Sequence record: OR844765
Source: Escherichia phage ECO111 5-P
Length of the DNA: 64,000 nucleotides
Strand: one strand, 5' to 3'
Positions within the stretch are counted from its first letter, which is position 1. Every line of letters begins with the position of its first letter. Position numbers and translations under genes: made by a program. The notes below the pieces were generated by a model that was not told the origin of the DNA, did not search any database, and saw only the letters and a list, made by a program, of their open reading frames with translations. Positions 24,256 to 26,494 of the stretch are shown here, one piece after another.

Positions 24256-24744
24256 ATGAATATATTTGAAATGCTTCGTAATGACGAAGGTCTTAGACTG
24301 ACTTTATACAAAGACACTGAAGGCTTTTGGACCATTGGCATAGGCCATTTAGTAACAAAGAACCCGTCTTTAGCCGTAGCTAAAGCTGAACTTGACAGAA
24401 TGATCGGCCGTAAATGCAACGGTACAATTACCATTGATGAGGCTGAAAAGCTATTTAATGAAGACGTTGATAAAGCCGTTCGCGGAATCTTGGGTAATGC
24501 TAAACTTAAACCGGTATACGATTCTTTAGATGCGGTTCGTCGATGTGCATTGGTCAATATGGTCTTCCAAATGGGTGTAGCAGGCGTCGCCGGTTTTACT
24601 AATTCTCTTCGTATGCTTCAACAGAAACGTTGGGACGAAGCGGCAGTAAATCTAGCCCAATCTAAATGGTATCGTCAGACACCTAATCGCGCGAAACGCG
24701 TAATCTCAACATTTAAAACAGGAACTTGGAAAGCGTATATATGA
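24256..24744 (+). CDS. e: endolysin (T4 lysozyme)
   Basis: [32 protein letters not shown]... near-identical to T4 lysozyme as recalled; ORF track start is a GTG, ATG 24256 used. Confidence 0.9.
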
Positions 24745-25022
24745 AAACATATAGTGAATTTTTATCAGAATCTATTCTTAACGAAGCTACTGACACATTT
24801 GCAACTAAGCTAGGTGCAGCTTTGGTTGAAGCTGAAAGTCTATTAGCACGTATTTCTGAACTTGCTAGTAAGATAGATACTCGCAAATTTGAACGCACCA
24901 GCGATATCGCTAAGCTTGAAGCCTTGTTGCGTATGTGCGATAAACCGGAAGAAATCGCTAAGAACGGCTCGCTGATGAAACAACGTCTTGAAAAATATAT
25001 TTCAGGCGCTTCAGAAAAATAG
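24741..25022 (+). CDS. internal-protein-like protein ([13 protein letters not shown])
   Basis: ATG overlaps e stop (ATGA); N-terminal CTS; position matches ipIII/ipII next to e. Confidence 0.65.
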
Positions 25023-25023
25023 T

Positions 25024-25053
25024 GTTTACTTCCTCCAAGGGTTTTGATATTAT
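25024..25053 (+). promoter_or_regulatory. early promoter (GTTTAC, TGaTATTAT) with CCTCCAAG/CTTGGAGG arms flanking the -10; right arm contains the denV SD
   Basis: Arms 25032-39 and 25068-75; SD GGAGG 25071-75; ATG 25081. Confidence 0.6.
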
Positions 25054-25080
25054 ACATTCATCAACTACTTGGAGGAAATT

Positions 25081-25494
25081 ATGACCCGTATCAATTTAAC
25101 ACTTGTTTCTGAACTGACTGACCAACATCTTATGGCGGAGTATCGTGAATTACCACGCGTATTTGGTGTAGTCCGTAAACATGTTCAAAACGGTAAACGT
25201 GTAAAGGATTTTAAAATCTCTCCAACATTTATTTTAGGCACAGGTCACGTAACATTCTTTTACGACAAACTCGAATTTTTACGTTTACGTCAAATCGAGC
25301 TAATCACTGAATGCTTGAAACGTGGTTTCAAAATCAAGGACACGACTGTCCAGGATATTTCCGACATCCCTGCCGAATTTCGTAATAATTATGTCCCGTC
25401 CGAAGCGTCCATTGCGATAAGTCAAGCACGCTTAGATGAAAAAATTGCTCAACGTCCGACTTGGTACAAATACTATGGTAAATCAATTTACTAA
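25081..25494 (+). CDS. denV: endonuclease V (pyrimidine-dimer DNA glycosylase)
   Basis: [29 protein letters not shown]... matches T4 DenV as recalled; ORF track start is a TTG. Confidence 0.9.
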
Positions 25495-25500
25495 GGAAAA

Positions 25501-25761
25501 ATGAAAATGTATCAAGAATTTATCGCTGAAGCAGATGCCAAAGGTCCTAAATTTAAAGTTAAAGCTTTCATTGGTGATGCGGAAGACTTTGGCTCATTAA
25601 AACGTAATGGGTATTTTTTCTTAGGTGGCGATGGTAAAGAAATCAACACCTATGCAAAACGTAGTGAAATTGCTTATGTTGTAGCAAGTCCTAAAGTAGA
25701 TGTTGACGATATTGGATACGATTTTAACAACTTCGGAATTATTTCTGGCGGTAAAGCTTAA
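25501..25761 (+). CDS. internal-protein-like protein (CTS MKMYQEFIAEA)
   Basis: ORF track 86 aa. Confidence 0.6.
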   Translation: MKMYQEFIAEADAKGPKFKVKAFIGDAEDFGSLKRNGYFFLGGDGKEINTYAKRSEIAYVVASPKVDVDDIGYDFNNFGIISGGKA

Positions 25762-25764
25762 ATT

Positions 25765-25794
25765 GTTTACGCTTAAGTATTAATATGGTATAAT
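25765..25794 (+). promoter_or_regulatory. early promoter (GTTTAC, 18 bp, TGgTATAAT)
   Basis: 31 nt upstream of ATG 25825. Confidence 0.55.
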
Positions 25795-25824
25795 TACTCT
25801 ATCAAAACAAACAAGGAAACAAAA

Positions 25825-26139
25825 ATGAAAACGTATAAAGAATTTATTGCAGAATCCGCCAACCAACGCGTTGAAGGTGGTTATATTTGGATTGAACAAG
25901 TTGAGCCACCGAGCCGCACTTCTACAGGTAAATGGAAAATTACTGTTGACGGTCCTGGTGGTAAACGTAGGACTCTTAAAGAAATTAATGGGTACTATGA
26001 AGAAGCTCTTTCGGATGCAGGAACTTACATGATGCAAATCATGATTAAAAACCCTGAAAACCGTTTTGCAGCTAAAGTCTTCCGTCGTATTGGTAATAAA
26101 CTTTATGATGCATACTCTAAAAACTTCCCTAAAGAATAA
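25825..26139 (+). CDS. internal-protein-like protein (CTS MKTYKEFIAES)
   Basis: ORF track 104 aa. Confidence 0.65.
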   Translation: MKTYKEFIAESANQRVEGGYIWIEQVEPPSRTSTGKWKITVDGPGGKRRTLKEINGYYEEALSDAGTYMMQIMIKNPENRFAAKVFRRIGNKLYDAYSKNFPKE

Positions 26140-26164
26140 CATAAATTAAAACAATAGGAACAAA

Positions 26165-26494
26165 ATGAAAACATATCAGGAGTTTATCACTGAAGTTACA
26201 TTATCTGCGGAACAGAAAGCTGCTATCGAAGAAGGTAAAAATCCCAAAGTAACATACAAAGTAAATAGTAAAGGCGTTTTTGATGGCTTGGTTCAAGACC
26301 CTGAATTGAAAAAAGCTCTTTCTAAAACTAATGCGTACTTTGCTCCTAAATTTAACACAGCCGGTGTACTTATTGGATTGGATGTATTCAACTCTAAAGG
26401 TGTTCTATCTAATGCCTTTGGTTATGCCGCTAACAAAATTACCAAAGCCGCATGGGAATCCAATACCAAACAAGCTCAAAAGCCTAGAGTATAA
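26165..26494 (+). CDS. internal-protein-like protein (CTS MKTYQEFITEV)
   Basis: ORF track 109 aa. Confidence 0.65.
   Translation: MKTYQEFITEVTLSAEQKAAIEEGKNPKVTYKVNSKGVFDGLVQDPELKKALSKTNAYFAPKFNTAGVLIGLDVFNSKGVLSNAFGYAANKITKAAWESNTKQAQKPRV

Follow-up and report, generated by a model that had tools for sequence, protein, structure and literature searches.

Six open reading frames (ORFs) of Escherichia phage ECO111 5-P (sequence record OR844765) very probably encode T4-type internal proteins (IPs) of an RB69-like Mosigvirus, proteins that would be packaged in the head, cleaved and injected, each of them probably inhibiting its own host nuclease. The ORFs were studied in a stretch of 64,000 nucleotides of the phage DNA, referred to below as the window, and are termed A to F in their order of occurrence. 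Homology and precedent support this interpretation, and from them we infer packaging, cleavage, injection and the anti-restriction role. The interpretation is a rediscovery: descriptions of the class date back to 1994, and GenBank already contains all six genes, some of them with a name. What this analysis adds are the perfect 33-nt repeats found around ORF B, a leaderless version of the B cargo in a siphovirus, and a signal on host CFT073 for a homolog of ORF C.

The window belongs to an RB69-like Mosigvirus (Tevenvirinae, T4 family). Its e–denV region is 98–99% identical to that of RB69 and of many other Mosigvirus phages, and in the region of gene 57B, mogra, JM10 and pEB20 are among the phages with ~96–97% identity. 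The six ORFs are distributed over two loci. ORFs A (13013–13324) and B (13386–13649) lie between 57B (12479..12934, + strand), the conserved left anchor of the first locus, and trna.4, the position that ipI occupies in T4. ORF C (24741–25022) is located between e (lysozyme; 24256..24744, +), the conserved anchor of the second locus, and denV (endonuclease V; 25081..25494, +), which sits within that locus and separates C from D; ORFs D (25501–25761), E (25825–26139) and F (26165–26494) follow between denV and vs.8. Both ipIII and ipII of T4 are found between e and denV. The intervals 57B–trna.4 and e–denV–vs.8 are the two classical T-even IP loci, and they hold all six ORFs. The first-pass annotation of this DNA had assigned the six to the range 24741–26494; this holds for C to F, but A and B lie 11 kb upstream. 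The genes for the prohead protease gp21 and the scaffold protein gp22 are both outside the 64-kb window; RB69, which is 98% identical across the second locus, encodes the two of them.

All six ORFs, on the + strand and with ATG starts, begin with MK[T/M][Y/F]xEF[I/L]xE, and the N-termini that the first-pass annotation had quoted were found letter by letter at the positions it gave. Scanning the six frames of the 64 kb for the pattern MK.[YFW].[ED]F[ILVM] retrieved exactly these ORFs and no other site, and a looser pattern retrieved the same six. That the common N-terminus is a coincidence, or an artefact of ORF calling, is an explanation to which we give practically no weight. It is already refuted by the six matches in exact register, with none elsewhere in the six frames and all with ATG starts, and by the conservation of the orthologs in 90–496 phage records.

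Mean pairwise amino acid identity among the six is 75% over residues 1–10 and 8.5% over residues 11–50. When codons 1–10 are compared pairwise, 29 synonymous and 38 non-synonymous differences are found; because of the 29 synonymous ones, the leader peptide is taken to be kept by selection and not to be merely recently copied DNA. T4 IpII and IpIII have the same first 11 residues as A (MKTYQEFIAEA); the other five leaders deviate from the consensus MKTYQEFIAE at 1–4 of the first 10 positions. The leader of T4 IpI is longer and of the same kind, ending at residue 19 with ITE/A (here and below, the slash stands for the end of the leader). The motif of the prohead protease, [I/L]-x-E, is present at residues 8–10 in 6/6 ORFs (IAE, ISE, LSE, IAE, IAE and ITE, from A to F). 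Taking into account the identity of the A leader with those of IpII and IpIII, the motif and the location in the same loci, the shared N-terminus is, on sequence grounds, the T4 capsid targeting sequence that the first-pass annotation had recognized in it. ORF C has two candidate protease sites, LSE (residues 8–10) and LNE (residues 13–15), the second being the one conserved in its family. As some members of the C family that lack Glu10 retain LNE or ITE at residues 13–15, C is probably cleaved after Glu15.

The leader was then considered in a survey that took 116 related loci out of IMG/VR, with denV and 57B as anchors, and collected every ORF in them that starts with MK.[YFW].[EDN]F. All leader-bearing ORFs of the survey are on the strand of the anchor gene. 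Within 123 distinct ORFs, 117 have [LIMV]-x-E at residues 8–10, and the remaining six have a later [LI]-x-E (residues 10–19), as does T4 IpI with its leader of 19 residues. Together with the six window ORFs and T4 IpI–III, the survey ORFs make up a comparison set of 131 sequences, which fall into 28 cargo clusters. The same cargo family may occupy either IP locus in different genomes, as is the case for the A family (cluster 0), the C family (cluster 6) and cluster 11.

A comparison of the locus across T4-like genomes, which had been put forward as a check of the first reading, could be performed at both loci for 25 genomes. The number of leader-bearing genes per genome ranges from 1 to 6 (median 4), and it is six in two of them. 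The family can hence be called expanded when it is compared with T4, but not when it is placed among T4-like genomes. Likewise, the members differ from one another, as had been claimed, but they are not unique in databases: GenBank phage records with an ortholog number 160 for A, 181 for B, 496 for C, 214 for D, 189 for E and 90 for F. Phage pEB20 carries the whole set, with C, E and F 100% identical, 98/103 residues of A and 85/87 residues of B conserved, and D annotated with a miscalled start.

Beyond the leader, the six proteins are unrelated, in agreement with the complete divergence noted by the first-pass annotation. BLAST comparison of the leader-stripped cargos among the six revealed no significant similarity; the sole pair under E=0.01 was A–B (E=0.002, scored against a six-sequence database). 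With hhalign on family alignments, probability was ≤6% for every pair that includes a window family. Paralogy of A with D and of E with F was considered as well, as PHROGs pools A and D in phrog_2667 and E and F in phrog_3966. It was rejected: neither leader-stripped BLAST nor hhalign detected a relationship, and neither pair is within the top 25 of 378 hhalign comparisons, the probabilities of these 25 being no lower than 1.2%. Since A–D and E–F are unrelated once the leader is removed, the pooling is probably due to the leader that they have in common and to composite clustering.

The mature cargos are small (8.2–10.8 kDa); A, B, E and F are basic (pI 9.0–9.7) and C and D near neutral, size and charge being similar to those of the T4 IPs. 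Scans of the ORFs against Pfam and NCBIfam gave no match above threshold, and sequence searches of the PDB with the six ORFs gave no match at E below 0.06. For B and C, a deep protein search retrieved only close relatives, resulting in shallow alignments. AlphaFold2 predicts for ORF B a disordered stretch at residues 1–12 (pLDDT below 50), followed by a compact alpha-beta-beta-alpha-beta-beta domain, with a mean pLDDT of 82.5. The prediction for ORF C is helical and of low confidence. When the model of ORF B was used for a fold search in BFVD, the sole match below E=0.001 was UPI0018AFBB59, a viral protein of 535 aa (28% identity over 84 columns, TM 0.78, E=9e-7). A domain of the B type may then also be part of a larger protein.

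Existing annotation of relatives makes A an Ip7-like protein, B Ip9 and E an Ip10-like protein, and PHROGs and RefSeq already label A to D as internal head proteins. ORF A encodes 103 aa with the leader MKTYQEFIAE/A and a mature product of ~10.3 kDa and pI 9.5. It is 97% identical to RB69 ORF156c ('internal head protein'), its counterpart in phage mogra is annotated as 'internal head protein 7', and it matches PHROG 2667 at 4e-39. ORF B (87 aa; MKTFNEFISE/S; mature ~8.9 kDa, pI 9.0) is 76% identical to 'Ip9' of phage RB15 and matches PHROG 7673 at 7e-49. ORF C, a predicted helical protein of 93 aa whose ATG overlaps the stop codon of gene e, is 91% identical to RB69 ORF127c ('internal head protein') and matches PHROG 3499. 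ORF D (86 aa; MKMYQEFIAE/A) starts 6 nt past denV and is 94% identical to RB69 ORF125c ('internal head protein'). The start annotated for D in pEB20 (1603–1863 of the extracted stretch) is two codons late, at the second Met of MK-M-YQEF, so that the leader is hidden and the label is 'hypothetical protein'; the coding sequence of D in moskry (2308–2562 of the extracted stretch) is 6 nt shorter than that of RB69, consistent with the same late-start miscall. ORF E (104 aa; MKTYKEFIAE/S; pI 9.6) is 72% identical to 'ip10 putative internal head protein' of VR7 and matches PHROG 3966, as does ORF F (109 aa; MKTYQEFITE/V; pI 9.7), which starts 25 nt past E and is 98% identical to RB69 ORF123c. The label of F in annotated matches at ≥97% identity is 'hypothetical protein'.

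Relative to window positions 24741–26494, three of the four IP genes of the e–denV–vs.8 locus carry lesions in the RB69 reference (NC_004928.1). In ORF127c, the ortholog of C (2042–2323 of the extracted stretch), a -1/+1 frameshift pair scrambles leader residues 5–12; in ORF123c, the ortholog of F (3467–3796), a GAA-to-GCA change eliminates Glu10; and in ORF124c (3126–3398) a 1-nt insertion alters the C-terminus. These lesions could correspond to decay in laboratory passage or to sequencing errors of 2003.

ORF B is bracketed as a cassette by two perfect 33-nt promoter/stem-loop repeats, an arrangement seen for B only. The left copy, TAGGACTATGTTATAGTAGTCCTATCAAAACAA (13337–13369, +), includes an 8-bp stem (TAGGACTA/TAGTCCTA) that can be read directly from the letters. 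The right copy (13665–13697, +) is a direct repeat, 100% identical to the left one and 328 nt apart from it, just upstream of trna.4. An early-type promoter, TTTACA-17-TATAGT (13325–13353, +), has its -10 box inside the left repeat, and a promoter-like site (13653–13681, +) overlaps the right one; in each copy, the stem-loop overlaps the -10 box. The repeats look like the promoter/stem-loop elements known from T-even IP loci (PMC2839356). Both the flanking repeats and the situation in RB69, which retains an ortholog of A and has ipI in the slot of B, would fit an exchange of the B cassette in which the repeated elements and the leader serve as recombination sites.

Early-type promoter matches are found directly upstream of A, B and E. 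The site before A, TTTACA-17-TACTAT (12949–12977, +), is a consensus match only. The site that E has of its own, TTTACG-17-TATAAT with an upstream TG (25766–25794, +), has the best score of the locus, with 10/12 positions. Late synthesis of the six IPs, which packaging requires, is assumed from T4. Just upstream of e, the late-promoter box has only near-matches. Two near-consensus boxes, TATAAGTA and AATAAATA, are located there just 5′ of and overlapping the first arm of a pairing, ACCTCC...GGGAGGT (24210–24256), which can form upstream of e and would bury the ribosome-binding site. We take this pairing to resemble the T4 arrangement that restricts translation of lysozyme to late transcripts. 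ORF C appears to be translationally coupled to e.

For two of the families, the comparison with other phages provides functional leads. ORF C is 48% identical (E=2e-24) to Bas37_0261 of phage Bas37 (KarlGJung, MZ501089.1; 1364–1621, - strand, of the extracted stretch). In the HIDEN-SEQ data given in supplementary table 7 of a preprint (bioRxiv 10.1101/2025.11.20.689424), transposon insertions in bas37_0261 average 263 on K-12 and 61 on CFT073, a depletion of about 4-fold (log2FC -2.09, adjusted p about 0). According to the same supplement they are unchanged on CFE299 (261, log2FC -0.01), and for gene 57B, upstream of bas37_0261, a depletion on CFT073 is seen as well (-1.56), possibly reflecting polarity on bas37_0261. 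The signal on CFT073 is not mentioned in the accessible portion of the main text of that preprint.

The second lead comes from the cargo of B. Kagunavirus BCH953P1 (OZ035805.1), a siphovirus, has an ORF of 73 aa (2507–2728, +, of the extracted stretch) which is 51% identical to mature B and which begins directly with the cargo; it has no leader, and there is no room upstream for one. The B cargo is matched by a second Kagunavirus record as well. Because the homolog is leaderless, the B cargo can be viewed as a free-standing module to which the leader would be a portable addition. This suggests that IP cargos have been recruited from free-standing genes, or donated to them, and that T4-like phages may recruit free-standing anti-defense genes by adding to them a leader of 10 residues.

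Several points weigh against the six ORFs being packaged inhibitors of host nucleases. Literature searches for virion proteomics of these proteins or of Mosigvirus found none. The exact late-promoter box, TATAAATA, is inside neither IP locus, and the nearest one is at 11887, upstream of 57A. The leaderless B cargo of the siphovirus implies that this cargo, at least, can work without capsid delivery. When sequence, clustering and profile comparisons are considered, no cargo resembles T4 Ip1, Ip2 or Ip3, RB69 IpI or Bas37_0260. An anti-restriction role is an extrapolation, as only four cargos of the class have known targets and none of them is similar to those described here.

Part of these observations can be accommodated if some of the six are ordinary early intracellular proteins that are not packaged, their conserved 5′ end being mainly a recombination linker for cassettes. 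We regard this as quite improbable. Besides the early-type promoters before A, B and E, the missing exact late promoter and the Kagunavirus gene, the RB69 orthologs of C and F agree with it, because their ORFs are open in spite of a scrambled leader in the first and the loss of Glu10 in the second. Nevertheless, those two lesions may have arisen by decay in the laboratory or from errors in sequencing, and C is joined to e, which does have near-consensus late-promoter boxes upstream. A linker acting as DNA is also difficult to reconcile with a leader whose protein sequence is conserved while its synonymous sites drift, and whose cleavage motif is kept in 117/123 cases.

A different possibility is that the IPs are packaged and that some or all of them are no defense inhibitors, participating instead in DNA charge neutralization, in condensation, in ejection or in host physiology, as the packaged ADP-ribosyltransferase Alt does. 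The DNA in T4 heads has ~1000 IP molecules embedded in it (PMC3012670), and 4/6 mature proteins of the window are basic (pI 9.0–9.7), as DNA-binding head proteins are. Moreover, no cargo is similar to any with a known target, and the fold search performed with B provided no functional hint. A generic structural role would leave unexplained, however, why the cargos are unrelated to one another and rapidly swapped and why genomes have from 1 to 6 of these genes. Every IP whose function has so far been established is an inhibitor of type IV restriction (PMC12373910; bioRxiv 10.1101/2025.11.20.689424), and the fitness signal reported in the preprint supplement for the C homolog is host-specific, not general. 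We therefore consider a role other than inhibition unlikely, if somewhat less so than the absence of packaging. That the members are candidate inhibitors of different host defenses, as the first-pass annotation had suggested, is supported by homology and precedent, and this reading can already be found in the literature.

In the reading favored here, each of the six is a two-part protein, with a capsid targeting leader of ~10 residues (possibly 15 in C) followed by an unrelated cargo of 8–11 kDa. As in T4, the leader would tether the protein to the scaffolding core, made of gp22, while the prohead is being assembled, and the gp21 prohead protease would cut after the Glu of [I/L]-x-E. The mature cargo would remain in the head among the DNA and be ejected into the cell along with the genome, where it would most likely bind and block a specific host nuclease attacking DNA with sugar-modified cytosine. 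As candidate targets we consider GmrSD/BrxU-like or McrBC-like enzymes of type IV restriction, with one target for each IP. For the exchange of IP genes, recombination may take place both in the conserved leader and in the early-promoter/stem-loop sequences repeated between genes; such behavior as cassettes would account for the variation of IP gene sets between related phages.

It is possible, although we would not expect it, that one or more of the six block a defense beyond the known Ip-GmrSD pairs, for instance an enzyme specific for arabinosylated 5-hydroxycytosine or a system other than restriction. The most concrete lead in this direction is the C family, with the CFT073 signal of Bas37_0261 that, in the accessible text of the preprint, its authors do not take up; the second is Ip9 (ORF B). 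Because injected proteins act before phage gene expression, IPs would be the first counter of the phage to nucleases attacking the incoming DNA. Injected proteins help to set host range, and are hence relevant to phage therapy. Both the class and its logic are well known, and an experimental route to IP targets was demonstrated twice in 2025. For Mosigvirus, which has arabinose and not glucose on its DNA, the six genes are reasonable candidates to test, and they add no new concept.

Internal proteins of T-even phages have been described as defense proteins that form a set of great diversity (PMC3012670), and their polymorphism, with more than 30 variants, goes back to Repoila et al. (1994) and Comeau et al. 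(2007), as cited in PMC2839356 and PMC12373910. The six ORFs are an instance of these polymorphic T4-type gene sets, with no essential difference. When compared with T4 IpI, IpII and IpIII (Mullaney and Black, 1996, as cited in PMC9026906), they coincide in the leader, the [I/L]-x-E motif, the two loci and the small size. The T4 proteins are basic, as are 4/6 here. Their cargos are unrelated to all six; furthermore, unlike T4, this phage has no ipI and carries Ip9 in that slot, and its IP genes flank denV on both sides, whereas the T4 pair is found only between e and denV. As in the class, the cargo is small and unrelated between members, and dispensability is visible only as presence or absence among relatives and in the non-essential Bas37 homologs of the preprint supplement.

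With respect to mobile elements, the cassette organization of B can be compared with the PeSL mobile cassettes of T4-type phages (Arbiol et al., 2010, PMC2839356; PMC4122927), as B, too, has brackets, here two identical 33-nt elements in which an early-type promoter is combined with an 8-bp stem-loop. Elements of this kind accompany both IP loci (PMC2839356). Those around B are AT-rich T-even analogs and not homologs of the RB49/phi1 PeSLs, whose stems are G/C-rich.

The inhibitors of type IV restriction are the closest precedent for the proposed function. T4 Ip1, Ip2 and Ip3 block GmrSD-CT596, GmrSD-ECOR21 and GmrSD-ECOR17, respectively (Silas 2025, PMC12373910), and it has been proposed that all genes of both Ip loci target variants of the GmrSD family (PMC12373910). 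Bas37_0260, a leader-bearing protein of the ipI locus, is reported to inhibit McrBC in a 2025 preprint (bioRxiv 10.1101/2025.11.20.689424). Identity of a window ORF with this anti-McrBC protein was considered and rejected, as it falls in survey cluster 1, which has no window member. The four inhibitors share with the six ORFs the architecture, the loci and the host genus, and likewise belong with sugar-modified DNA as a substrate of the GmrSD family, but have no sequence relationship to the six cargos. The modification of Mosigvirus DNA is arabinosyl-5-hydroxycytosine, of the arabosyl type, and not glucosyl-hmC, and for this reason the relevant host enzymes may differ from those of T4. BrxU, an enzyme of the GmrSD family, cuts Mosigvirus DNA with arabinosylated cytosines (PMC13390438).

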